A stretch of 15,072 bases of DNA from the IMG/VR virus record IMGVR_UViG_3300029862_000313, one strand, 5' to 3'. The position numbers and the translations under genes were made by a program. This document shows positions 2,884-15,072 of this stretch, in pieces (positions within the stretch are counted from its first letter, which is position 1; the number at the start of each line of letters is the position of its first letter). The DNA comes from a virus. Its lineage: Duplodnaviria; Heunggongvirae; Uroviricota; Caudoviricetes. The notes beneath the pieces were generated by a model. That model worked only from the letters and a program-made list of their open reading frames with translations. It made no database searches and was not told where the DNA came from.

Positions 2884-3378
2884 TCATTTCCAATTGCAAG
2901 ACTGTGAAATTTTTTCCACAACCTTATCAATCTCAGACAAGTCAAACTCAACTACTTGCATAGTTGATCCATAAGGTTCAAACCCAAAAATAGCTTTTTT
3001 ATGCTTAGCCAAGGTCTTTATAAATTGTATTGGTTGTGGAGCAAATGCAGAATCACCGCCTTCCCCACCTCCCCAAGCACTCTTGACCGGCTTTCCGCCA
3101 TCTAACCGCACTGTAATTCTTGGGTTGTCCGAACCCATATAATCATTGAATGATAAATAGGCATCTGTTTTGTTATCACTACAACGCAACACCAGTGAAG
3201 TTGCACGATCAGTACCTGCTTTGTTATATGAATCTGGTGATAAATTAAGAGCCACAAAGTCAGTCTGGTCAGTCATTTTATTTATCTCAGACTTTGTTAT
3301 CCACGACCCTAACTTCTCTACACCAGCATTTGCAGTAAACGAGGCACTTATGACAAAGGCTATAATAAATTTTCTCAT
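2884..3378 (-). CDS. Secreted protein of unknown function, 164 aa, N-terminal signal peptide (cargo gene in AT-rich segment)
   Basis: Signal peptide MRKFIIAFVISASFTANA followed by a hydrophilic mature domain with a Gly-rich patch (WGGGEGG). Low-GC gene in low-GC flanks with its own terminator. No family recognised. Confidence 0.6.
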   Translation of the reverse strand: MRKFIIAFVISASFTANAGVEKLGSWITKSEINKMTDQTDFVALNLSPDSYNKAGTDRATSLVLRCSDNKTDAYLSFNDYMGSDNPRITVRLDGGKPVKSAWGGGEGGDSAFAPQPIQFIKTLAKHKKAIFGFEPYGSTMQVVEFDLSEIDKVVEKISQSCNWK

Positions 3379-3524
3379 AACCCTATCTCCTTGGATTTAA
3401 AGAACTAAATATTATCAAGTCTCTTGCCACTAGAAAACCCACTTTATTTCCAAACTCTGATGGCATTCCTGAAAATCCGCTTCATACTCACTTGCCCCGC
3501 CCTATCATCCTGAGTAGCTAACCG

Positions 3525-3698
3525 TTAAACAAACGTTCGCCAGACCTTACCATCAATGACCAGGATTCCTGCCCGCGCCATTTTTGCCGCAGCCTGATTT
3601 ATGCTGGTTAATGTCACACCTGTTGTCGCAGCAACGTCCGGCGCACAGAAGCTCTTGTGCGTCTCCAGATAATGAATAATTGCCTCTTTGCCCGTCAT
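3525..3698 (-). CDS. ren: Ren-like protein, C-terminally truncated/divergent (57 aa versus 96 aa in lambda)
   Basis: ATG overlaps the P stop codon (ATGA at 3695..3698 on -). My translation is MTGKEAIIHYLETHKSFCAPDVAATTGVTLTSINQAAAKMARAGILVIDGKVWRTFV*, matching remembered lambda Ren up to about residue 55 and then diverging into AT-rich DNA. This ORF is below the 60-aa cutoff of the ORF track. Confidence 0.6.
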   Translation of the reverse strand: MTGKEAIIHYLETHKSFCAPDVAATTGVTLTSINQAAAKMARAGILVIDGKVWRTFV

Positions 3699-4396
3699 AC
3701 AGTTGCTCCTTTCAGTCCGAACTTCGCTTTGATTTCTGCGATCTTCGCCAGAGCCTGTGCACGATTTAGAGGCCTACCGCCCATGACAGGAAGTTGTTTT
3801 ACTGGTTCAGGTATCGCCTCACCACGGTTAATTCGCGCGGTCATACAGGTCAGCTCATCGGCAGCTTTACGCCGTAATTCCGCGTCAGTCAGCGCATTGG
3901 CCCGCATGTTCTGGTACAGGTTGGTAACCAACCAGTAGTGCGCGTTTGATTTCCATGGATAAGACTCTGCGTCCGGATACAGGCCACGCTTCCGGCAATA
4001 CTCGTAAACCATATCAACCAGCTCGCTGGCGTTTGGCAGTCCGGCGGTAACGGATGCTTCTTCCCGGCACCAGGCGACAAACTGCCCGGGTGATGGCAGG
4101 AATGGTCGATTCTGCCGACGGGCTACGCGCATTCCTGCGTTAACCTGTTCCATTGTGGTGATCCCGTTTTCCCGGAAAGCCAGAACCCACTGGCGGCGGA
4201 TTTCGTTCAGTTCGTTCTGGTCCCGGTTAGCCAGGCTCGCCGGGAAAGTTGCCAGTAACTGGCTGAACACACCGTTGATGATCCGCGCTACCTGCTGTAC
4301 CTGCGGCTTTTCGTCGTACTGTTCCGGCATGTTGTTGGCGATCCGGCGCATCTGCTCACGGTCAAAGTTAACCATCTGTGCGGCGATGTTTTTCAT
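3695..4396 (-). CDS. P: Replication protein P (DnaB helicase loader), lambda-type
   Basis: 233 aa, near-identical to remembered lambda P (MKNIAAQMVNFDREQMRRIANNMPEQYDEKPQ...). Start overlaps the O stop. Confidence 0.95.
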   Translation of the reverse strand: MKNIAAQMVNFDREQMRRIANNMPEQYDEKPQVQQVARIINGVFSQLLATFPASLANRDQNELNEIRRQWVLAFRENGITTMEQVNAGMRVARRQNRPFLPSPGQFVAWCREEASVTAGLPNASELVDMVYEYCRKRGLYPDAESYPWKSNAHYWLVTNLYQNMRANALTDAELRRKAADELTCMTARINRGEAIPEPVKQLPVMGGRPLNRAQALAKIAEIKAKFGLKGATV

Positions 4397-5322
4397 AAAT
4401 CCACCCCATAAATCCAGTCAGTGTTTGTCAGGTCGAGTTTTGATTTTCCGGCTGTCACGCCAGCCTGTTGCTTGTTACGGTTGATTTCGAGTTGGGTCCA
4501 CTTGTCGCGGAGTTTGGCCGGACTTAGCACGTTACCGGACCAGAAGTTGTCCTGGCATGCCCAGCGGAACAGCACGCACATGTCGCGGTGGTTACGTCCG
4601 TCACGTTCACGCATCAGGCGGATATCGTTAGCCCACCCTGCAAAATTCGGTTTTCTGGCTGATGGCGCGATGGTCTTCACCATGTCAAACATCCACTCTG
4701 CGGCGGTCAGGTCTTCTGCTGTCCCCCACCTGCTGCCGCTCTGAATTGCAGCATCTGGTTTCTCCACAGGAAGATCGTTTTCTGGTTGGTCAGAGGATTC
4801 GCCAGAATTCTCGGACGAAAAAGGTTTTATATTGTCTTTTGTTAGTTTGTCTTTTGTGTTTACCTGATTCGGGTAAACGCCTTTACCTGATTTGGGTAAA
4901 CTTTTCTTACCTGATTCAGGTAAATTTACCTCTTTCAGGTAAACTTTATTTTTCTTACCTGATTCGGGTAATGTTGACCATTCACTGACCACATTATTAA
5001 TGCCGATATTCCGCCCGCTCTGAATAAGAATCCCACGCTTTACCAGAACGCTTTTTGCAGCAGAACACTTGTGCGGCAATATCCCGGTCAACTCGGAAAG
5101 TTGCTCGTTGCTCACCCAATCCAGTTTTTTATTAAAGCCATATGTTTTGCGCATGACAGCCAGGAAGACCAGAAGCTGGTGCTGTGTTAATCCGGCCAGC
5201 ATCACAGCTTCCAGCAACTCATTTGCAATGCGCGTATAACCATCATCGAGATCTGCCACGCGCGGCTCCTTTTGTGCCGCATCCGGCACTGGAAAATTGA
5301 ATATCTCAGCAGTGTTTGCCAT
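4393..5322 (-). CDS. O: Replication initiator O, mosaic: non-lambda N-terminal iteron-binding domain, lambda-like C-terminal P-interacting domain
   Basis: Alignment to lambda O begins at MANTAEIFNF (lambda MTNTAKILNF), and GGAGG lies 6-10 nt upstream of the ATG at 5320..5322. The track ORF extends to 5412 (ATGA overlap with upstream gene) but the extra 30 aa have no lambda counterpart. Iterons are embedded in the coding sequence as in lambda ori. Confidence 0.85.
   Translation of the reverse strand: MANTAEIFNFPVPDAAQKEPRVADLDDGYTRIANELLEAVMLAGLTQHQLLVFLAVMRKTYGFNKKLDWVSNEQLSELTGILPHKCSAAKSVLVKRGILIQSGRNIGINNVVSEWSTLPESGKKNKVYLKEVNLPESGKKSLPKSGKGVYPNQVNTKDKLTKDNIKPFSSENSGESSDQPENDLPVEKPDAAIQSGSRWGTAEDLTAAEWMFDMVKTIAPSARKPNFAGWANDIRLMRERDGRNHRDMCVLFRWACQDNFWSGNVLSPAKLRDKWTQLEINRNKQQAGVTAGKSKLDLTNTDWIYGVDL
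4857..4975. repeat. Replication origin iterons inside O: five copies of an 18-19 bp palindromic repeat TTACCYNWTTYRGGTAAA, flanked by an AT-rich stretch (4800..4860)
   Basis: Copies at 4861..4878, 4884..4901, 4909..4926, 4928..4945 and 4957..4974 (e.g. TACCTGATTCGGGTAAAC). Adjacent AT-rich tract aaaaggttttatattgtcttttgttagtttgtcttttgtg. Architecture mirrors lambda ori (iterons plus AT-rich region within O) but the iteron sequence differs from lambda's. Confidence 0.8.
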
Positions 5323-5408
5323 AATTCCTCCCGCAATGAGTGTGTTACGATTTGCACCTGAAAGTCGGTTCTGTTCCCGCAGACCGACTTTCGCCATTTC
5401 TGAACCTG

Positions 5409-5948
5409 TCATATTGCCCCCAGCATGGTGGTCACCATCGCCATTAATGGACCAGCCAGATCCGGGTCCACACGAAACATCGACACAATACCTTCACTCA
5501 TTTCCTTCAGTTTCTGGTGGCGTGGTGCGTTGAGAATGACAGCCTGTTTTGCCTCACTGAGTTCCTTTTCCATTTCAGCCAACCGAGTCATGAAGCTATC
5601 CTGCTCAACCAGGTAACCGCGATATTCCAGCGGTAGTACCGCCAGAATTGCCGGGGTCAGTTCACGCACGTTATTTCGGTATTTTTCAGAATCGAATTTG
5701 TTATCGAGGAAGCGGAACAGCTTCTGGCGTGCACGGCTGACATCATCAGGGAAATCGATGGTGCCGTCGCCCTGCTCCCGATACTCATTCACAATGAGTG
5801 CGGCAACGACATCCTGATTATCTACAGCCGACCAGGCGCGGACGGCATCACGGATTTTTTCGTGGCCTGGAGCTTGTTTTGTTTGAGAACGATTTATCAC
5901 CGCAGTCGGAATAAATCCGCTAGTCTGTTGGTATGTAAGTGGTTGCAT
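5409..5948 (-). CDS. CII-position regulatory protein, 179 aa, possibly YdaT-family (functional analogue of CII)
   Basis: Sits between cro-like and O where lambda has cII. AAGGAG RBS 7 nt upstream of ATG at 5946..5948. Family assignment rests on position and on the Cro partner resembling the YdaS type; the sequence was not confirmed. Confidence 0.5.
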   Translation of the reverse strand: MQPLTYQQTSGFIPTAVINRSQTKQAPGHEKIRDAVRAWSAVDNQDVVAALIVNEYREQGDGTIDFPDDVSRARQKLFRFLDNKFDSEKYRNNVRELTPAILAVLPLEYRGYLVEQDSFMTRLAEMEKELSEAKQAVILNAPRHQKLKEMSEGIVSMFRVDPDLAGPLMAMVTTMLGAI

Positions 5949-6017
5949 AATTGACTCCTTTAGTTTGAATTGACTGTTAAGTTGATTGCTTATTGTTAAA
6001 GAGCGTGAAATGGAAAT

Positions 6018-6248
6018 TTAAGCTGCGTTCTTTTCGGTGTGTGGAAACAACTTCGGAAGATCCGGGCGAATCTGGTATGCCTTCACAACTCCACCAGTAG
6101 CCGTAACAATGCTGCCGACATGTTCAGGGGATACCTTTGCTTTGTTGTGAAGCCACTTATAGACGGCCTGCTGTGAAACTTCGCAGGCATCGCCTAGTTT
6201 CTTTTGTGAACCAACGATATTGATCGCTGTTTTGATTGCTGGGTTCAT
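6018..6248 (-). CDS. cro: Cro-like HTH transcriptional regulator (YdaS/Cro type), 76 aa
   Basis: Divergent from cI across an operator-rich 104-bp intergenic region. HTH-like segment (QKKLGDACEVSQQAVYKWL) and a C-terminal YQIRPDL motif. Confidence 0.7.
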   Translation of the reverse strand: MNPAIKTAINIVGSQKKLGDACEVSQQAVYKWLHNKAKVSPEHVGSIVTATGGVVKAYQIRPDLPKLFPHTEKNAA

Positions 6249-6352
6249 AACAACCTCCGTGGTTAATCCGAATCAAGATTAAAACTATGGTTGTTTTTAG
6301 TCAACAACCATTTTCGTTTGATGAAATAAAACCTTGGTTGTACATTTGATCT
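6249..6352. promoter_or_regulatory. OR-like operator/promoter region between divergent cro-like and cI genes
   Basis: Inverted repeat ATGGTTGTT-N6-AACAACCAT at 6287..6310. Additional AACAACC/GGTTGT motifs at 6249..6255 and 6334..6340. The same ACAAC/GTTGT half-sites recur at the OL-like region near 7784..7847. Confidence 0.6.
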
Positions 6353-7042
6353 ATGAAAACAACACTCTCAGAAAGACTTAAAGAAGCCAGATTAGCGCGA
6401 GGCCTTACACAAAAGGCGCTTGGGGATTTGGTCGGGGTTAGCCAGGCTGCTATTCAGAAAATCGAAACAGGGAAAGCTAACCAAACAACTAAAATCGTGG
6501 AGATCGCGAACGCTTTGGGTGTGCGCGCAGAATGGTTATCTTCTGGCGTTGGAAATATGTCAGACAGTACAGTGCAACCAATACAATCAACTGTCAGCCA
6601 TTCCAAATACTTCAAAATTGACGTTCTTGATATAGAAGTCAGTGCCGGGCCAGGTGTAATCAACCGTGAGTTTGTAGAAGTTCTACGCTCGGTTGAGTAC
6701 TCGTTTGACGATGCTCGTCACATGTTCGATGGCAGGAAGGCGGAAAATATCCGCATCATTAACGTGCGAGGTGACAGCATGTCAGGGACGATCGAACCAG
6801 GTGACCTGCTGTTCGTTGATATCACTGTTAAATCTTTCGACGGTGATGGCATCTATGCGTTTCTGTACGACGACACTGCCCATGTAAAACGTCTTCAAAT
6901 GATGAAGGATAAGCTGCTGGTTATCTCTGATAACAAGAGCTACTCGCCGTGGGACCCGATCGAGAAAGACGAGATGAACCGGGTGTTCATATTCGGTAAG
7001 GTCATTGGAAGCATGCCGCAGACGTACAGGAAGCATGGTTAA
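6353..7042 (+). CDS. cI: CI-type prophage repressor, N-terminal HTH plus C-terminal S24 (LexA-like) autopeptidase domain; not lambda immunity
   Basis: 229 aa. HTH (LTQKALGDLVGVSQAAIQKIETG), candidate Ala-Gly cleavage site (EVSAGPG), Ser nucleophile in GDSMSGTIEPGD and Lys in HVKRL. Unlike remembered lambda cI. Confidence 0.85.
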   Translation: MKTTLSERLKEARLARGLTQKALGDLVGVSQAAIQKIETGKANQTTKIVEIANALGVRAEWLSSGVGNMSDSTVQPIQSTVSHSKYFKIDVLDIEVSAGPGVINREFVEVLRSVEYSFDDARHMFDGRKAENIRIINVRGDSMSGTIEPGDLLFVDITVKSFDGDGIYAFLYDDTAHVKRLQMMKDKLLVISDNKSYSPWDPIEKDEMNRVFIFGKVIGSMPQTYRKHG

Positions 7043-7271
7043 TTTATCTACGACTTAAGGGAGCGAAGGTTAAGGTTTATACCACTCGGATTAGATATTG
7101 CACTAAATTCTCTATAAGAACGCCAAATCTGTTTGCATATTTCAGTAAATATTCTCGTTGTTAGCTGAGATTTGTTGCTACTGTCAGCAAAATGTCCCCC
7201 TATCTCGTAGCGGTTTTTATTTCGAATCATTATGTTAAGATGTTTCTGATTATAATGAATGGAAACATAAA

Positions 7272-7652
7272 ATGAGAAAAATCCTAATCGCTGCCATGAT
7301 GGCATCTGTATTGGCTGGGTGTGCTTCTTCAGGCAACCAGCAACTCAAAAATGAAACTGAAATTAGTGTCCAGTCTAAACTTCAGGAAGGTAAAACAACC
7401 AAGAATGAGGTTAAATCTTACTTTGGTTCTCCTGATGCTGTTTCATATACTGACAGTGGAAACGAGATCTGGAAGTACGCCTTTGCAAAAGTAAAAGTTA
7501 ATGGCACCACTTTTATTCCATTCTATGGATTATTCCATAATGGAACGAACGGTACGAAAAAAGAACTTACTATTCTTTTTAACGATGACACGATTAAGAA
7601 ATACACAATGTCAGAAACCCAAATAAACTCGAAATCAGGTTGGGCTGACTGA
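7272..7652 (+). CDS. Lipoprotein of unknown function, 126 aa, in the rexAB/sieB-equivalent position downstream of cI
   Basis: Signal peptide with lipobox LAGC (Cys18). Preceded by a 229-bp AT-rich spacer and followed by a hairpin terminator. Low GC relative to neighbouring phage genes. Confidence 0.7.
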   Translation: MRKILIAAMMASVLAGCASSGNQQLKNETEISVQSKLQEGKTTKNEVKSYFGSPDAVSYTDSGNEIWKYAFAKVKVNGTTFIPFYGLFHNGTNGTKKELTILFNDDTIKKYTMSETQINSKSGWAD

Positions 7653-7660
7653 TAATCATA

Positions 7661-7690
7661 CCCGGCAACCGCGCCGGGTTTTCTTTTCCT
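7661..7690 (+). terminator. Rho-independent terminator after the lipoprotein gene
   Basis: CCCGGC (7661..7666) pairs with GCCGGG (7673..7678), followed by TTTTCTTTTCC. Confidence 0.7.
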
Positions 7691-7779
7691 CCCCCTCATA
7701 ACTCATACCGTCCAAAAAACCACCACACCTCACTTCAGTTATCGCTATGCGATGCAAGTCACAAAATAAATCCATCCTA

Positions 7780-7860
7780 AATACAACCAGTTATATTTAA
7801 AACAACCGACAAAACAACTTTTGTTGTTGACGATAAAACAACTATAGTTTTAAATAAATT
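7780..7860 (+). promoter_or_regulatory. OL/pL-like operator-promoter region driving the early operon toward gam-bet-exo
   Basis: Operator-like repeats ACAACC (7784..7789, 7802..7807) and palindrome ACAAC-TTTT-GTTGT (7814..7827). Candidate -35 TTGACG (7827..7832) with -10 TTAAAT (7850..7855) at 17-bp spacing. Orientation matches the downstream + strand early genes. Confidence 0.5.
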
Positions 7861-7910
7861 CATCGCAACGACACAACGATACGGTAACCACCTGTTTCAC
7901 CGTTGCGATG
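7861..7910 (+). promoter_or_regulatory. Structured 5' leader: perfect 10-bp inverted repeat (CATCGCAACG ... CGTTGCGATG) with 30-nt loop, immediately downstream of the pL-like promoter
   Basis: 7861..7870 is the exact reverse complement of 7901..7910. Further GC-rich self-complementary segments follow to about 8045 (e.g. GTCGC-N9-GCGAC at 8025..8043). Function not established. Confidence 0.35.
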
Positions 7911-8132
7911 ACCGCTTAGATCCGCAGTTTGAATTTCAGCAGGCTTCGGGGAGTGCGAGGGGTGAAGCGGACGCGTGAACGTCGGTGTGACCAGCTGAAA
8001 TCAACTCAACACTTCATACCTCAGTCGCTTCAACGAGGCGACTTAGTTATGACAACCGGCGGCCATCCACCGCCTGAATACGCGCAGAAGTCTCTATATG
8101 TTCAGCAGCCCAGCTTACGGGCAGGAGTTTTT

Positions 8133-8339
8133 ATGGTTCATCAACATTACGGAACGCAGACCGTTAATCGAGGTGCGGTCATGCCAGGAATGCTGGTCAA
8201 ACACAAAGATGGTACCTGGACTGCATCAGCTAATTTACGCGGACGGCTTTATCTGCATCGCGGCATCGAGCGCACTTATACCCGTGATTTGCTCGTGGAA
8301 GTTTTTCTCGACGGACGCGGTAACGGCCTGAATCGCTAA
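8133..8339 (+). CDS. Hypothetical early protein (68 aa from the AGGAG-associated start; the ORF is open from 7929, 136 aa)
   Basis: Strong RBS AGGAG (8123..8127) 5 nt before ATG at 8133. Occupies the position of lambda N..kil but shows no similarity to either. The stop at 8337..8339 abuts the point where lambda-like sequence resumes (8340). The longer ORF has an Arg-rich N-terminus but no evident RBS. Confidence 0.35.
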
Positions 8340-8414
8340 TCCCCTTTCCTGTTTTCCTAATCAGCCTGGCATTTCGCGGGCGATATTTTCACAGCCATTT
8401 TCAGGAGTTCAGCC

Positions 8415-8711
8415 ATGAACGCTTATTACATTCAGGATCGTCTTGAGGCTCAGAGCTGGGCGCGTCACTACCAGCAGATCGCCCGTGAAGAGAAAGAGGC
8501 AGAACTGGCAGACGACATGGAAAAAGGCCTGCCCCAGCACCTGTTTGAATCGCTATGCATCGATCATTTGCAACGCCACGGGGCCAGCAAAAAAGCCATT
8601 ACCCGTGCGTTTGATGACGATGTTGAGTTTCAGGAGCGCATGGCAGAACACATCCGGTACATGGTTGAAACCATTGCTCACCACCAGGTTGATATTGATT
8701 CAGAGGTATAA
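8415..8711 (+). CDS. gam: Gam, RecBCD nuclease inhibitor (short GamS-length form, 98 aa)
   Basis: Near-identical to the C-terminal 98 aa of remembered lambda Gam ([21 protein letters not shown]...). Upstream DNA from 8340 matches the lambda gam leader, but the long-form N-terminus is replaced. Confidence 0.93.
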
Positions 8712-8716
8712 AACGG

Positions 8717-9502
8717 ATGAGTACAGCACTCGCAACGCTGGCTGGGAAGCTGGCTGAACGTGTCGGCATGGATTCTGTCGACCCACAGGAACTGATCACC
8801 ACTCTTCGCCAGACGGCATTTAAAGGTGATGCCAGCGATGCGCAGTTCATCGCATTACTGATCGTTGCCAACCAGTACGGCCTTAATCCGTGGACGAAAG
8901 AAATTTACACCTTTCCTGATAAGCAGAATGGCATCGTTCCGGTGGTGGGCGTTGATGGCTGGTCCCGCATCATCAATGAAAACCAGCAGTTTGATGGCAT
9001 GGACTTTGAGCAGGACAATGAATCCTGTACATGCCGGATTTACCGCAAGGACCGTAATCATCCGATCTGCGTTACCGAGTGGATGGATGAATGCCGCCGC
9101 GAACCATTCAAAACCCGCGAAGGCAGAGAAATTACGGGGCCGTGGCAGTCGCATCCCAAACGGATGTTACGGCATAAAGCCATGATTCAGTGTGCCCGTC
9201 TGGCCTTCGGATTTGCGGGTATCTATGACAAGGATGAAGCCGAGCGCATTGTCGAAAATACCGCATACACTGCAGAACGTCAGCCGGAACGCGACATCAC
9301 TCCGGTTAACGATGAAACCATGCAGGAGATTAACACTCTGCTGATTGCCCTGGATAAAACATGGGATGACGACTTATTGCCGCTCTGTTCCCAGATATTT
9401 CGCCGCGACATTCGCGCATCGTCAGAACTGACACAGGCCGAAGCAGTGAAAGCTCTTGGATTCCTGAAACAGAAAGCCACTGAGCAGAAGGTGGCTGCAT
9501 GA
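8717..9502 (+). CDS. bet: Bet (Red-beta) single-strand annealing recombinase
   Basis: 261 aa, near-identical to remembered lambda Bet ([59 protein letters not shown]...). Confidence 0.97.
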
Positions 9503-10179
9503 CACCGGACATTATCCTGCAGCGTACCGGAATCGACGTGAGAGCTGTCGAACAGGGGGATGATGCGTGGCACAAATTACGGCTCGGCGTCATCACCGCT
9601 TCAGAAGTTCACAATGTGATAGCAAAACCCCGCTCCGGAAAAAAGTGGCCTGACATGAAAATGTCCTACTTCCACACCCTGCTGGCTGAGGTTTGCACCG
9701 GTGTGGCTCCGGAAGTTAATGCTAAGGCGCTGGCATGGGGAAAACAGTACGAGAACGACGCCAGAACTCTGTTTGAATTCACTTCCGGCGTGAATGTTAC
9801 TGAATCCCCGATCATCTATCGCGACGAAAGTATGCGTACCGCCTGCTCTCCCGATGGTTTATGCAGTGACGGCAATGGCCTTGAGCTGAAATGCCCGTTT
9901 ACCTCCCGGGATTTCATGAAGTTCCGGCTCGGTGGTTTCGAGGCCATAAAGTCGGCTTACATGGCCCAGGTGCAGTACAGCATGTGGGTGACGCGAAAAG
10001 ATGCCTGGTACTTTGCCAACTATGACCCGCGTATGAAGCGTGAAGGCCTGCATTATGTCGTGGTTGAGCGGGATGAAAAGTACATGGCGAGTTTTGACGA
10101 GATGGTGCCGGAGTTCATCGAAAAAATGGACGAGGCACTGGCTGAAATTGGTTTTGTATTTGGGGAGCAATGGCGATGA
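9499..10179 (+). CDS. exo: Exo (Red-alpha) 5'-3' exonuclease
   Basis: 226 aa, near-identical to remembered lambda Exo ([43 protein letters not shown]...). Overlaps the bet stop. Confidence 0.97.
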
Positions 10180-10358
10180 CGCATCCTCACGATAATATCC
10201 GGGTGGGCGCGATCACTTTCGTCTACTCCATTACAAAGCGAGGCTGGGTATTTCCCGGCCTTTCTGTTATCAGAAATCCCCTGAAAGCACAGCGGCTGGC
10301 TGAGGAGATAAATAATAAACGGGGAGCTGTATGCACAAAGCATCTCCCGTTGAGTTAA
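10170..10358 (+). CDS. Lambda orf60a-like small protein
   Basis: 62-aa ORF ([31 protein letters not shown]...) directly after exo, as in the lambda orf60a position. Confidence 0.75.
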
Positions 10359-10522
10359 GAACGAGTATCGAGATGGCACATAGCCTCGCTCAAATTGGAG
10401 TCAGGTTTGTGCCAATATCAGTAGAAACAGACGAAGAATTTCATACGTTAGCCGCATCCCTTTCACAAAAGCTGGAAATGATGGTGGCGAAAGCAGAAGC
10501 AGATGAGAGAGACCAGGTATGA
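10331..10522 (+). CDS. Lambda orf63-like small protein
   Basis: 63-aa ORF in the lambda orf63 position; overlaps neighbours in the compact lambda-like arrangement. Confidence 0.7.
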   Translation: MHKASPVELRTSIEMAHSLAQIGVRFVPISVETDEEFHTLAASLSQKLEMMVAKAEADERDQV

Positions 10523-10598
10523 CAACCACTGAATGCATTTTTCTGGCAGCGGGCTTCATATTCTGTGTGCTTATGCTTGCCGACATGGGGCTTGTTCA

Positions 10599-10814
10599 AT
10601 GACACCTCAGCAAGAAAACGCCCTTCGCAGCATTGCCCGTCAGGCTAATTCTGAAATCAAAAAAGCCAGACAGCAGTTTCCGGATAAAAACGTCGATGAC
10701 ATTTGCCGTAGCGTACTAAAGAAGCACCGCGAAACGGTAACGCTGATGGGATTCACACCGACTCATTTAAGCCTGGCGATCGGCATGTTGAACGGCGTCT
10801 TTAAGGAACGGTGA
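10599..10814 (+). CDS. Lambda orf61-like small protein (start uncertain; track ORF opens at 10533)
   Basis: ORF ending at 10814 with MTPQQENALRSIARQANSEIKK... from ATG at 10599. The upstream in-frame extension is hydrophobic and Cys-rich and may not be translated. Confidence 0.6.
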   Translation: MTPQQENALRSIARQANSEIKKARQQFPDKNVDDICRSVLKKHRETVTLMGFTPTHLSLAIGMLNGVFKER

Positions 10815-10912
10815 ACATGAAAAGCAAAATCATCAGGGAGCTACAGGCTCCTTTTTTATTATTCGCATTCACCCTCAAGCGTATTAACCAACAATTCAGG
10901 GATTAATGAAAG

Positions 10913-11134
10913 ATGGCAGACATAATTGATTCAGCATCAGAAATTGAAGAATTACAGCGCAACACAGCAATAAAAATGCGCCGCCTGAACCACCAGGCTA
11001 TATCTGCCACTCATTGTTGTGAGTGTGGCGATCCGATAGATGAACGAAGACGACTGGCCGTTCAGGGTTGTCGGACTTGTGCCAGTTGCCAGCAAGATCT
11101 GGAGCTTATCAGTAAACAGAGAGGTTCGACGTGA
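10913..11134 (+). CDS. TraR/DksA-family C4 zinc-finger protein (lambda orf73-like), a likely RNA polymerase-binding modulator
   Basis: 73 aa with CxxC...CxxC (CCECGDP ... CRTCASC) and the N-terminal MADIIDSASEIEELQRN characteristic of TraR-like proteins. Lambda position between orf61 and ea22. Confidence 0.8.
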   Translation: MADIIDSASEIEELQRNTAIKMRRLNHQAISATHCCECGDPIDERRRLAVQGCRTCASCQQDLELISKQRGST

Positions 11135-11538
11135 GCGAAATTAACTCTCAGGCACTGCGTGAAGCGGCAGAGAAAGCCGGTGAAGATAAGTGGCAGGCTA
11201 AAAAAATAAATGGTGATTTTTTCGTTATTCGTCACGGTAGTTATACAAGACAGCATGGCTACACATCGTATCAACCCATTGCGGAGATTGATTGTAAGCC
11301 AGTCCGGGATTTTGTTGCCAAGGCTAATCCGGCTACCGTGCTGGAATTACTGGATGAACTGGAAGCAGCAAAAAAGCGCATTGCAGAACTGGAAGCGCGG
11401 GAAATACTGCTCCCGGAACGTAGCAGCATGCTTCATCGAACAGATTTTCACGATGATTACCAAACGGTAATGGCATACAAAGTTTCTGAAGTCATCGATG
11501 CAATCCGCGCTACTGGCATTCGCATCAAAGGAGAGTGA
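11131..11538 (+). CDS. ea22: Ea22-like protein, mosaic (lambda-like N- and C-termini, different central region; 135 aa versus about 182 aa in lambda)
   Basis: N-terminus MSEINSQALREAAE and C-terminus GIRIKGE match remembered lambda Ea22; the middle, including a coiled-coil-like LELLDELEAAKKRIAELEARE, does not. Confidence 0.75.
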   Translation: MSEINSQALREAAEKAGEDKWQAKKINGDFFVIRHGSYTRQHGYTSYQPIAEIDCKPVRDFVAKANPATVLELLDELEAAKKRIAELEAREILLPERSSMLHRTDFHDDYQTVMAYKVSEVIDAIRATGIRIKGE

Positions 11539-13528: not shown

Positions 13529-13558
13529 GAACCCGCCGAGTGCGGGTTTTCTTTTATC
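13529..13558 (+). terminator. Rho-independent terminator
   Basis: AACCCGC (13531..13537) pairs with GCGGGTT (13543..13549), followed by TTCTTTTAT. Confidence 0.6.
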
Positions 13559-13598
13559 TGAACTCGCTACGGCGAGTTTTGTTTTATGGCGATGATAA

Positions 13599-13766
13599 AT
13601 GCACTTCCGAGTTACAGGTGAATGGAATGGAGAACCATTCAACAGAGTTATCGAAGCCGAGAACATCAGCGACTGCTATAACCACTGGATGCTGTGGGCG
13701 CAGATAGCACATGCAGACGTAACCAATATTCGAATTGAAGAACTGAAAGAACACCAAGCCGCCTGA
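13599..13766 (+). CDS. Small ORF, 55 aa, in the lambda orf55 position just upstream of xis
   Basis: My translation is MHFRVTGEWNGEPFNRVIEAENISDCYNHWMLWAQIAHADVTNIRIEELKEHQAA*. Below the 60-aa track cutoff. Weak RBS. Confidence 0.4.
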   Translation: MHFRVTGEWNGEPFNRVIEAENISDCYNHWMLWAQIAHADVTNIRIEELKEHQAA

Positions 13767-13780
13767 TGGCGGTTTTTTCT
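13756..13780 (+). terminator. Hairpin plus T-run terminator immediately upstream of xis
   Basis: GCCGCC (13758..13763) pairs with GGCGG (13768..13772), followed by TTTTTTCTT. Confidence 0.55.
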
Positions 13781-13805
13781 TGCGTGTAATTGCGGAGACT
13801 TTGCG

Positions 13806-14024
13806 ATGTACTTGACACTTCAGGAGTGGAACGCTCGCCAGCGACGCCCAAGAAGCCTTGAAACAATTCGTCGATGGGTGCGCGAATGCAGGATATTCCC
13901 TCCTCCGGTTAAGGATGGAAGAGAATATCTGTTCCACGAATCAGCGGTAAAGGTTGACTTAAATCGACCAGTAACAGGTAGCCTTTTGAAGAGGATCAGA
14001 AATGGGAAGAAGGCGAAGTCATGA
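13806..14024 (+). CDS. xis: Excisionase Xis, lambda-type
   Basis: 72 aa, near-identical to remembered lambda Xis (MYLTLQEWNARQRRPRSLETIRRWVRECRIFPPPVKDGREYLFHESAVKVDL...). Its 3' end overlaps the int start. Confidence 0.95.
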   Translation: MYLTLQEWNARQRRPRSLETIRRWVRECRIFPPPVKDGREYLFHESAVKVDLNRPVTGSLLKRIRNGKKAKS

Positions 14025-15072
14025 GCGCCGGGATTTACCCCCTAACCTTTATATAAGAAACAATGGATATTACTGCTACAGGGACCCAAGGACGGGTAAA
14101 GAGTTTGGATTAGGCCGAGACAGGCGAATCGCAATCACTGAAGCTATACAGGCCAACATTGAGTTATTTTCAGGACACAAACACAAGCCTCTGACAGCGA
14201 GAATCAACAGTGATAATTCCGTTACGTTACATTCATGGCTTGATCGCTACGAAAAAATCCTGGCCAGCAGAGGAATCAAGCAGAAGACACTCATAAATTA
14301 CATGAGCAAAATTAAAGCAATAAGGAGGGGTCTGCCTGATGCTCCACTTGAAGACATCACCACAAAAGAAATTGCGGCAATGCTCAATGGATACATAGAC
14401 GAGGGCAAGGCGGCGTCAGCCAAGTTAATCAGATCAACACTGAGCGATGCATTCCGAGAGGCAATAGCTGAAGGCCATATAACAACAAACCCTGTCGCTG
14501 CCACTCGCGCAGCAAAATCAGAGGTAAGGAGATCAAGACTTACGGCTGACGAATACCTGAAAATTTATCAAGCAGCAGAATCATCACCATGTTGGCTCAG
14601 ACTTGCAATGGAACTGGCTGTTGTTACCGGGCAACGAGTTGGTGATTTATGCGAAATGAAGTGGTCTGATATCGTAGATGGATATCTTTATGTCGAGCAA
14701 AGCAAAACAGGCGTAAAAATTGCCATCCCAACAGCATTGCATGTTGATGCTCTCGGAATATCAATGAAGGAAACACTTGATAAATGCAAAGAGATTCTTG
14801 GCGGAGAAACCATAATTGCATCTACTCGTCGCGAACCGCTTTCATCCGGCACAGTATCAAGGTATTTTATGCGCGCACGAAAAGCATCAGGTCTTTCCTT
14901 CGAAGGGGATCCGCCTACCTTTCACGAGTTGCGCAGTTTGTCTGCAAGACTCTATGAGAAGCAGATAAGCGATAAGTTTGCTCAACATCTTCTCGGGCAT
15001 AAGTCGGACACCATGGCATCACAGTATCGTGATGACAGAGGCAGGGAGTGGGACAAAATTGAAATCAAATAA
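14002..15072 (+). CDS. int: Tyrosine integrase Int, lambda-type (attP/attL expected just beyond the window end)
   Basis: 356 aa, near-identical to remembered lambda Int (MGRRRSHERRDLPPNLYIRNNGYYCYRDPRTGKEFGLGRDRRIAITEAIQ... HELRSLSARLYEKQISDKFAQHLLGHKSDTMASQYRDDRGREWDKIEIK). The window ends at its stop codon. Confidence 0.97.
   Translation: MGRRRSHERRDLPPNLYIRNNGYYCYRDPRTGKEFGLGRDRRIAITEAIQANIELFSGHKHKPLTARINSDNSVTLHSWLDRYEKILASRGIKQKTLINYMSKIKAIRRGLPDAPLEDITTKEIAAMLNGYIDEGKAASAKLIRSTLSDAFREAIAEGHITTNPVAATRAAKSEVRRSRLTADEYLKIYQAAESSPCWLRLAMELAVVTGQRVGDLCEMKWSDIVDGYLYVEQSKTGVKIAIPTALHVDALGISMKETLDKCKEILGGETIIASTRREPLSSGTVSRYFMRARKASGLSFEGDPPTFHELRSLSARLYEKQISDKFAQHLLGHKSDTMASQYRDDRGREWDKIEIK

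Follow-up and report, generated by a model that had tools for sequence, protein, structure and literature searches.

A YdaT-family, phi80-type CII and predicted 434-type operators in the immunity region of a lambda-like Escherichia coli prophage

A stretch of viral DNA of 15,072 nucleotides (nt) from IMG/VR (record IMGVR_UViG_3300029862_000313, Caudoviricetes; this whole stretch at its full length is called the window) carries a lambda-like Escherichia coli prophage, which runs from the replication side to int. Its immunity region raises the question which kind of genetic switch lies between the replication and recombination genes, and in particular what role may be ascribed to the protein of 179 amino acids (aa) encoded in the position of cII. 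The genes are arranged in the order O (4393-5412, minus strand), cII, cro and cI; the latter is followed by a lipoprotein gene, a second control region at approximately 7780-7860, and kil, gam, bet, exo, xis and int. The three switch genes are the following.

5409..5948, minus strand: gene in the cII position, phi80-type CII of the YdaT family (Pfam, PDB, PHROG, hhalign)
6018..6248, minus strand: cro, 76 aa, YdaS-type, all-helical (Pfam YdaS_toxin PF15943, 61.5 bits at a cut-off of 30)
6353..7042, plus strand: cI, 229 aa, 434-like helix-turn-helix (HTH) domain (residues 5-68) and S24 autopeptidase (Pfam, PDB)

It is very likely that the control cassette of lambda has been replaced here by a different but functionally equivalent one, an estimate which applies jointly to all parts of the explanation given below. 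Most flanking gene products showed high identities to those of lambda in blastp comparisons (Int 99.4%, Xis 97%, Exo 98.7%, Bet 99.2%, Gam 98%, P 97.4%), and blastn detected homologous DNA at 3454-4859, 8333-11172 and 13544-15072, with zero homology to lambda between 4860 and 8332. The switch proteins themselves are distant from their lambda counterparts (blastp): cI showed 23% identity (E 0.03) and Cro a non-significant 25%, while the best E value for the 179-aa protein against lambda CII (97 aa) was 2.8, and its only Pfam matches were to YdaT_toxin. O matched lambda O with 66% identity in the C-terminal part only. Its N-terminal, origin-binding part (region 4393-4860) is not lambda-like, in contrast to the C-terminal part and P; the specificity for the replication origin therefore seems to have been exchanged along with the immunity cassette.

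The repressor showed Pfam matches to HTH_3 (49 bits) and Peptidase_S24 (67 bits), and the PDB structure closest to its HTH domain is the 434 repressor (E 4.5e-9). In the translation, a complete autocleavage set was found, consisting of the Ala98-Gly99 site, Ser142 (in GDSM) and Lys179 (in VKRL). Due to this S24 domain and these residues, cI should be RecA-cleavable. The gene cro is the first gene behind PR and divergent from cI; its product exhibits 30% identity to YdaS of Rac (E 1e-8), and the closest PDB entry (3bd1) is a Cro protein.

By its sequence, the 179-aa protein belongs to the YdaT family and, within it, to the CII proteins of the phi80 type. Beside the match to Pfam YdaT_toxin (PF06254, 104.5 bits at a cut-off of 21, E 4.3e-30, residues 67-154), the solved YdaT structures 8bt1 (E 5e-4) and 3c4r (E 1e-3) were found with phmmer; 3c4r derives from an O6:H1 strain, and the Rac YdaT of strain K-12 is b1358. 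The protein belongs to PHROG 163, annotated as 'CII-like transcriptional activator' (E 1.4e-66), and hhalign aligned its residues 28-120 to residues 4-96 of Rac YdaT with 97.9% probability and 33% identity. The HTH domain comprises residues 28-106. It contains the invariant R79, which aligns with R57 of Rac and corresponds to the conserved DNA-contacting arginine of the recognition helix. Residues 1-27 form an N-terminal extension that is absent from YdaT of Rac and CP-933P. Identities to the CII proteins of phi80 (66% over the full length), mEp237 (66%), CobraSix (73%) and HK639/HK225 (about 52%) therefore place the protein in a long, phi80-type branch of YdaT proteins with approximately 27 additional N-terminal residues. 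These gene identities and family memberships were read directly from the searches. The gene is preceded by a Shine-Dalgarno sequence (AAGGAG, 7 nt ahead of the ATG) and directly follows the YdaS-type cro, while the replication genes lie downstream of it. Its stop codon overlaps the start of O (ATGA, 5409-5412), so that no intergenic room is left for an antisense RNA gene like oop or M3. Such an oop/M3-like RNA gene is located between cII and the replication gene in phi80 and HK639.

A preliminary description of this DNA had already placed the three open reading frames correctly, and both blastp and blastn agree with its picture of a foreign immunity cassette between lambda-like recombination and replication genes. 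Its proposal that the 179-aa protein may be of the YdaT type was borne out by Pfam, the PDB entries 8bt1 and 3c4r, hhalign and PHROG 163 alike, and the profile search which it had suggested yielded both YdaS and YdaT domains above the Pfam cut-offs and no unrelated family. The further statement that the switch proteins are unrelated to those of lambda holds for Cro and CII, but has to be narrowed for cI, since the S24 autocleavage domain belongs to the same family as that of lambda cI and LexA.

The sites at which these proteins might act were deduced from repeated motifs. ACAAC/GTTGT pentamers occur 41 times in the 15 kb, and the two densest spots are located at 6250-6363 (5 copies) and 7783-7877 (6 copies). 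The recurring unit is a motif of 14 base pairs (bp), A[CA]AAC-N4-GTT[GT]T. Its four exact copies in the window (6281, 6328, 7814 and 7838) all lie in the two control regions, with 0.11 expected and a maximum of 2 in 2000 shuffles. Five operator sites with a spacing of 23-24 bp, which are about 40-fold enriched over shuffles, are conserved in three diverged phages, and the ACAAC-containing sites were the only recurring palindromic motif common to both control regions and conserved in diverged relatives. These motif statistics and the conservation are direct observations. The predicted operators, to which no strand is assigned, are listed here.

6281..6294: OR1, AAAACTATGGTTGT, exact motif match, between the -35 and the tentative -10 of PR
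6304..6317: OR2, ACAACCATTTTCGT, right half weak, aligned with HK639, abuts the -35 hexamers of PR and PRM
6328..6341: OR3, AAAACCTTGGTTGT, exact motif match, between the -35 and -10 of PRM
7814..7827: OL2, ACAACTTTTGTTGT, exact motif match, conserved in the comparison loci L002, L003 and L005, abuts the -35 of PL
7838..7851: OL1, ACAACTATAGTTTT, exact motif match, at a distance of 24 bp to OL2 in each of the four phages
7783..7796: possible OL3, ACAACCAGTTATAT, weak, from a by-eye alignment of OL, left half conserved in four phages and right half degenerate
6250..6263: possible auxiliary operator, ACAACCTCCGTGGT, 9 of 10 half-site matches, overlaps the Shine-Dalgarno sequence of cro

The predicted operator architecture is of the 434 type, with two-fold sites of 14 bp whose outer 5+5 positions are specific and whose inner four are free, arranged in tandem at OR and OL; the operators of phage 434 also comprise 14 bp, of which the outer 5+5 bp are contacted (PMC1636474). 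In phage HK639, three perfect ATAAC-N4-GTTAT sites align onto 6281-6294, 6304-6317 and 6328-6341. OR1 corresponds to the HK639 site ATAACCCAAGTTAT, and OR2, which is also conserved in L002 and L003, corresponds column for column to the perfect site ATAACCTTTGTTAT. On the basis of this alignment, 6304-6317 was assigned as OR2 at distances of 23 bp to OR1 and 24 bp to OR3, resulting in a lambda-like spacing. The layout of the operators (47 bp across OR, 24 bp at OL) is identical in the Klebsiella phage ST101-KPC2phi6.1 (cI 77%, Cro 87% identity) and the Providencia phage PSTCR7lys (cI 50%, Cro 72%), despite diverged flanks. At the position of the possible auxiliary operator, PSTCR7lys possesses a perfect site, but 6250-6263 could instead represent inherited leader sequence. 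In the group of phages with ACAAC operators, the residue behind the conserved S-Q of helix 3 is alanine in cI and glutamine in Cro; in HK639 it is proline in both proteins. This shared change, together with the ATAAC half-site of HK639, fits the assumption that cI and Cro both read the 14-bp sites. The preliminary description had regarded ACAAC-containing palindromes in both control regions as the operators. Their clustering is real, and the one at 7814-7827 is OL2. The other one (6287-6311), a real inverted repeat ATGGTTGTT-N7-AACAACCAT with 9-bp arms, consists of the right half of OR1 and the left half of OR2 and is thus not the operator unit, which is the 14-bp 5-N4-5 site.

The promoters PR, PL and PRM remained undetected in a promoter scan with strict rules. 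They were assigned by hand, and the assignment is backed by conservation.

-35 TTGACT at 6299-6304 and tentative -10 TAATCT at 6276-6281, minus strand: predicted PR, OR1 between the hexamers
-35 TTGACG at 7827-7832 and tentative -10 TTAAAT at 7850-7855, plus strand: predicted PL, OL1 between the hexamers
-35 TTGATG at 6318-6323, 17 nt and -10 TACATT at 6341-6346, plus strand: predicted PRM, OR3 between the hexamers

The cores of PL and PR are near-identical (GTTGTTGAC..AAAACAACyATAGTTTTAA), and a TAnnnT directly behind OR3 is retained in all four aligned phages. No Shine-Dalgarno sequence precedes the cI start codon at 6353, and the predicted start of PRM coincides with the A of this ATG (approximately 6353). 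The cI mRNA is therefore most probably leaderless, as in lambda and CP-933P.

For the predicted CII, a candidate binding site and a candidate promoter were found within the 5' end of cII itself.

5883..5900, plus strand: candidate CII (YdaT-type) box, TTGAGA-ACGATT-TATCAC, in codons 17-22 of cII (conservation)
5921..5926, plus strand: candidate -10 of a PRE-like promoter, TAGTCT, 20 nt downstream of the box (TAnnnT conservation)

The YdaT proteins of CP-933P and Rac are tetrameric HTH proteins; they have a binding site, TTGATT-N6-AATCAA, at the ydaS/ydaT junction and activate a reverse promoter that serves the repressor gene (PMC9986795, PMC8630535, PMC11879457); the published YdaT promoters were called putative, or, in the case of PracR4, placed approximately 190 bp from the box. 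On the cII strand, the box of the window reads GTGATA-AATCGT-TCTCAA and corresponds in its 6-N6-6 geometry to the footprinted YdaT-box, and the candidate -10 is oriented antisense to cII and cro, towards cI. Among 66 distinct phi80-type genes, which were collected from phages and 68 enterobacterial genome loci, the TGAT and TCA cores of the box are invariant (66/66), and this is achieved by a constraint on synonymous sites. Ile18 is encoded by the rare ATA in 56 and by ATT in 10 of the genes, whereas ATC does not occur, and the third base of codon 21 is always T (66/66), though this codon may specify N, A, S, Y or D. The antisense TAnnnT at a distance of 20 nt from the box is likewise found in all 66 loci, with codon 9 ending on T throughout although it encodes N, S, D, G or T. 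The constraint on codons 21 and 9 is not due to a general codon bias, as the nearby codon 19 uses both AAT and AAC.

The same spacing was found in the short-type YdaT loci. At the footprinted box of Rac (2678-2695 of L080), TATGAT is located at the same distance of 20 nt. The comparison comprised 75 distinct loci of Rac-like, CP-933P-like, Klebsiella and Stenotrophomonas-like type, including Tritos and IMG/VR contigs (L082-L246); as an initial scan of IMG/VR yielded near-identical Rac copies only, a Stenotrophomonas-type query was used to obtain diversity. A TAnnnT 19-21 nt from the box occurred on the antisense side in 75 of 75 loci and on the sense side in none, with 60 different spacers and a background of 1.1% per offset. 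This conserved spacing suggests that PRE is adjacent to the box. It appears reasonably probable that the whole YdaT/phi80-CII family uses an establishment promoter of this kind, which would lack a -35, lie beside the box with its -10 (TAnnnT, often with an upstream TG) at a distance of 20-21 nt, and have the centre of the box at about -41.5. In the phi80-type genes, including that of the window, both elements would fall into the first 22 codons of cII, so that the 27-residue extension would be dual-coding and retained for the sake of the promoter. The conserved distance between box and -10, which provides a directly testable location of PRE for the YdaT family, is a side result that may be new; no paper on PRE of phi80 was found in a literature search. 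If it is true, the published model for Rac, with activation from a distance of about 190 bp, would have to be revised, and a PRE would be defined for a module that occurs in about a quarter of the complete E. coli genomes.

Taken together, the immunity region most probably functions as the following switch; in this scheme, the pairing of proteins with sites, the promoter activities and the transcription start sites are predictions. A dimer of cI, with its 434-like DNA-binding domain and cleavable in the SOS response, would bind the 14-bp sites, three of them at OR and at least two at OL. From there it would shut off PR (leftward: cro, cII, O and P) as well as PL (rightward: kil, gam, bet and exo), and cI bound at OR2 would activate PRM, from which the leaderless cI mRNA is formed. 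The YdaS-type Cro would use the same 14-bp sites as cI. CII would bind the inverted repeat within its own first 22 codons (5883-5900) and from there switch on an otherwise silent promoter, the -10 of which is located 20 nt away (5921-5926). This PRE-like promoter would be read antisense through cro into cI, and repression would thereby be established in the way known from lambda CII and PRE.

Other explanations were considered for the sites and for the proteins. Instead of the intragenic box, CII might use direct repeats located in the spacer of cro and cII, just as lambda CII uses the direct repeats TTGC-N6-TTGC.

5949-5956: direct repeat AATTGACT, cro-cII spacer
5968-5975: direct repeat AATTGACT, cro-cII spacer
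5980-5987: direct repeat AGTTGATT, cro-cII spacer

The hexamers TTGACT-N6-TTGATT of this spacer resemble YdaT half-sites with the right period of 12 bp, and the region between cro and cII is the location where PRE was sought in CP-933P. However, the spacer is missing from most phi80-type loci, in which cro and cII abut or are only 30 nt apart, and the direct repeats were therefore set aside as CII sites. Furthermore, the 222 symmetry of the YdaT tetramer suits inverted repeats, and conservation of both the intragenic box and its -10 extends throughout the family, so that an action of CII via the spacer is considered very unlikely. It is very unlikely that the 25-bp palindrome at 6287-6311 is functional by itself, be it as an operator of the repressor or as the hairpin of a bidirectional terminator. 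Such an inverted repeat arises necessarily from adjacent palindromic operators, its arm extensions are lost in the Klebsiella phage, and a terminator between divergent promoters which includes the -35 of PR makes no sense. The distance from GTTGT to ACAAC also varies between OR (9 nt) and OL (10 nt), whereas the N4 gap is invariant in every site and phage. These points outweigh the perfect 9-bp repeat itself, its detection on both strands by a terminator scan with T runs, and a compensatory change at one position of the arms in PSTCR7lys.

With regard to the proteins, the genes in the positions of cro and cII might encode a toxin-antitoxin pair, as could be concluded from their naming in Pfam (YdaS_toxin, YdaT_toxin) and RefSeq ('toxin YdaT domain-containing protein') and from the reported toxicity of ectopically expressed ydaS and ydaT of Rac. 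Nevertheless, this is extremely improbable. Both genes occupy precisely the places of cro and cII, with OR on one side and the replication genes on the other, and the 179-aa gene is carried by plaque-forming phages and is 66% identical to phi80 cII, a genetically defined lysogeny gene. These proteins were shown to be DNA-binding regulators and not a toxin-antitoxin pair (Jurenas 2021, Prolic-Kalinsek 2023), and such a pair was rejected for homologues (PMC8630535, PMC5917428).

Several points nevertheless weigh against the proposed switch and its intragenic PRE. The single-sequence AlphaFold2 model of the 179-aa protein reached a mean confidence (pLDDT) of 37 and is unusable beyond an all-helical pattern of secondary structure. 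The right half-site of OR2 is poor, and the -10 hexamers of PR and PL are ambiguous, with possible spacers of 15-18 nt. Of the 12 positions in the consensus of the YdaT-box, the box at 5883-5900 matches only 8 and retains both the TGAT and the TCA core, and in the work on Rac the YdaT-activated promoter lies about 190 bp from the box and not next to it. Genes for N and cIII are not present; control of CII stability and antitermination must therefore differ from those of lambda. Finally, no binding, transcription or immunity data for the module were found in the literature.

The module itself is widespread. The region 5300-7950 is 99.9% identical in the isolated Escherichia phage PhiR26_1 (PV340555), where the genes are annotated as cI, Cro and cII, and PhiR26_1, PhiR34_1, PhiR5_1, PhiR47_2, Turner and IdasGreatGrand share cI with at least 99.6% and Cro with at least 97% identity. 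The isolated phages with the exact module are able to grow on hosts of K-12 or C; a literature search yielded no paper on the PhiR phages. The core of cro, OR and cI (at least 80% coverage) was detected in 1519 of 5426 complete E. coli genomes, and RefSeq lists the 179-aa protein as 'toxin YdaT domain-containing protein'. Due to its presence in PhiR26_1 and five further phages, in RefSeq and in these genomes, the module is not new; it is neither rare nor undescribed, but combines a CII of the phi80 type with an immunity type that is very frequent in E. coli. The mosaic nature of the cassette is evident from the phages 4A7, D2 and Perceval, in which the same CII (97%) occurs beside another Cro (49%), and from ST101-KPC2phi6.1, which combines the same type of cI and Cro with a small, lambda-type CII. 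It represents a standard lambdoid mosaic, and annotations of its parts exist in GenBank phages, RefSeq and PHROGs. For annotation, this means that the 'toxin YdaT domain-containing protein' in more than 1500 E. coli genomes is better interpreted as a lysogeny activator of the CII type. The predicted set of operators would define one of the commonest immunity groups of E. coli and be useful for predicting superinfection immunity of prophages.

Some features of the leader regions bear on antitermination.

5993..6005, minus strand: perfect boxA consensus CGCTCTTTAACAA in nutR-like position in the cro-cII spacer, single occurrence in the window, function predicted
8133..8339, plus strand: Rac-type Kil (FtsZ inhibitor), first PL gene (NCBIfam NF008465, E 1e-16; phrog_294, E 1e-38)

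No obvious boxB hairpin was found, and no N gene. A search of the whole window with Rfam yielded only the ALIL frameshift pseudoknot of an IS3-family element and nothing in the immunity region, including oop- or put-like RNAs. The leader of PL aligns with putL of HK639 over the first approximately 30 nt behind PL only, the stability of its fold is not unusual (z -0.84), and it contains an inverted repeat with an 11-bp stem (7860-7870/7901-7911). The open frame of kil extends upstream to 7962 or 7929; RefSeq uses the start at 8133 and the annotation of PhiR26_1 that at 7962. In the 125-aa reading, the Kil domain comprises residues 58-122, and the arginine-rich KRTRERR at the start is reminiscent of the RNA-binding motifs of N proteins. 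This N-terminus might suggest an N-like protein encoded by 7962-8339; the C-terminal part is Rac-type Kil, and RefSeq places the start at 8133.

The remaining loci are located on both sides of the switch.

7272..7652, plus strand: lipoprotein moron in the position of rexAB (phrog_3135, E 3e-48)
7660-7679: intrinsic terminator behind the lipoprotein gene (terminator scan)
1-588: chromosomal cbrC
650-1012: remnant of yieK
1241-2454: IS3-family element, ALIL pseudoknot at 2057-2173
2884-3378: VasI/TagO-like gene in the nin region (Pfam PF11319, 27.5 bits, type VI secretion-associated family)
3525-3698: truncated ren, 57 aa

In phages with identical cI, the rexAB position is occupied by HipA-like or GevT/GevA toxin systems. 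As the genes vary, this position appears to be a hotspot at which accessory or defence genes are exchanged. At the left end, cbrC and yieK are joined to the prophage at the truncated ren through the IS3-family element. This junction of chromosome, IS3 and ren was found in 0 of 5426 complete E. coli genomes, and elsewhere the same prophage is located at attB-lambda, adjoining ybhC. The left end thus looks like an IS-mediated rearrangement or deletion. The VasI/TagO-like gene is named 'type VI secretion system-associated protein TagO' in the RefSeq entry of strain 582.

In comparison to known systems, the module shares with the immunity region of lambda the logic and the order PL/OL, cI, OR/PRM/PR, cro, cII, O and P, the S24 autocleavage domain of cI, the predicted leaderless cI mRNA and the putative CII site within the 5' end of cII. 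It differs in its predicted operators (14 bp versus 17 bp in lambda), in a CII of 179 aa and another fold family (97 aa in lambda), and in the absence of N, cIII and rexAB. Phage 434 provides the solved structure closest to the DNA-binding domain of cI, and its 14-bp operators also read 5+4+5 with ACAA...TTGT as outer bases and occur three times at OR. However, the pair of repressor and operator is not that of 434, as helix 3 (SQAAIQKIE versus TQQSIEQLE) differs at 5 of 9 positions and the identity of the domains is 37%. The half-site is A[CA]AAC, with base 5 always C and base 2 C or A, instead of ACAAT/ACAAG, and 434 Cro is an HTH protein resembling the 434 repressor, in contrast to the YdaS-type Cro found here. 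HK639 possesses homologous cI (44%), Cro (63%) and CII (52%) proteins as well as three OR sites of the same 5-N4-5 design at aligned positions, but with its ATAAC half-sites instead of A[CA]AAC and the proline in helix 3 of both proteins, its immunity specificity is presumably different.

The CII of phi80 (JX871397, cII at 35671-36213) belongs to the same length class of 179-181 aa and is likewise encoded behind cro. The CII proteins of phi80, mEp237, HK639 and HK225 also have the N-terminal extension with a TGATA-N6-nnTCA box and an antisense TAnnnT. On the other hand, cI, Cro and the operators of phi80 (annotated with 19 bp) bear no relation to those described here, and the oop-like M3 RNA is located between phi80 cII and the O-like gene, whereas cII overlaps O in the window. 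YdaT of CP-933P (PDB 8bt1) and of Rac resembles the 179-aa protein with respect to the Pfam family, the HTH alignment, the arginine of the recognition helix and the position of the gene, as well as the geometry of the box and its distance to TAnnnT. These proteins are shorter (140-141 aa) and do not possess the N-terminal extension of 27 residues, the C-terminal 60 residues could not be aligned, and their box overlaps the start codon of ydaT instead of being located inside the coding region. From the PhiR26_1 group, finally, the module differs only in the moron between cI and OL, which is a lipoprotein gene here and a HipA-like or GevT/GevA system in other phages; the prophage of the window is additionally truncated on the ren side by the IS3-family element.

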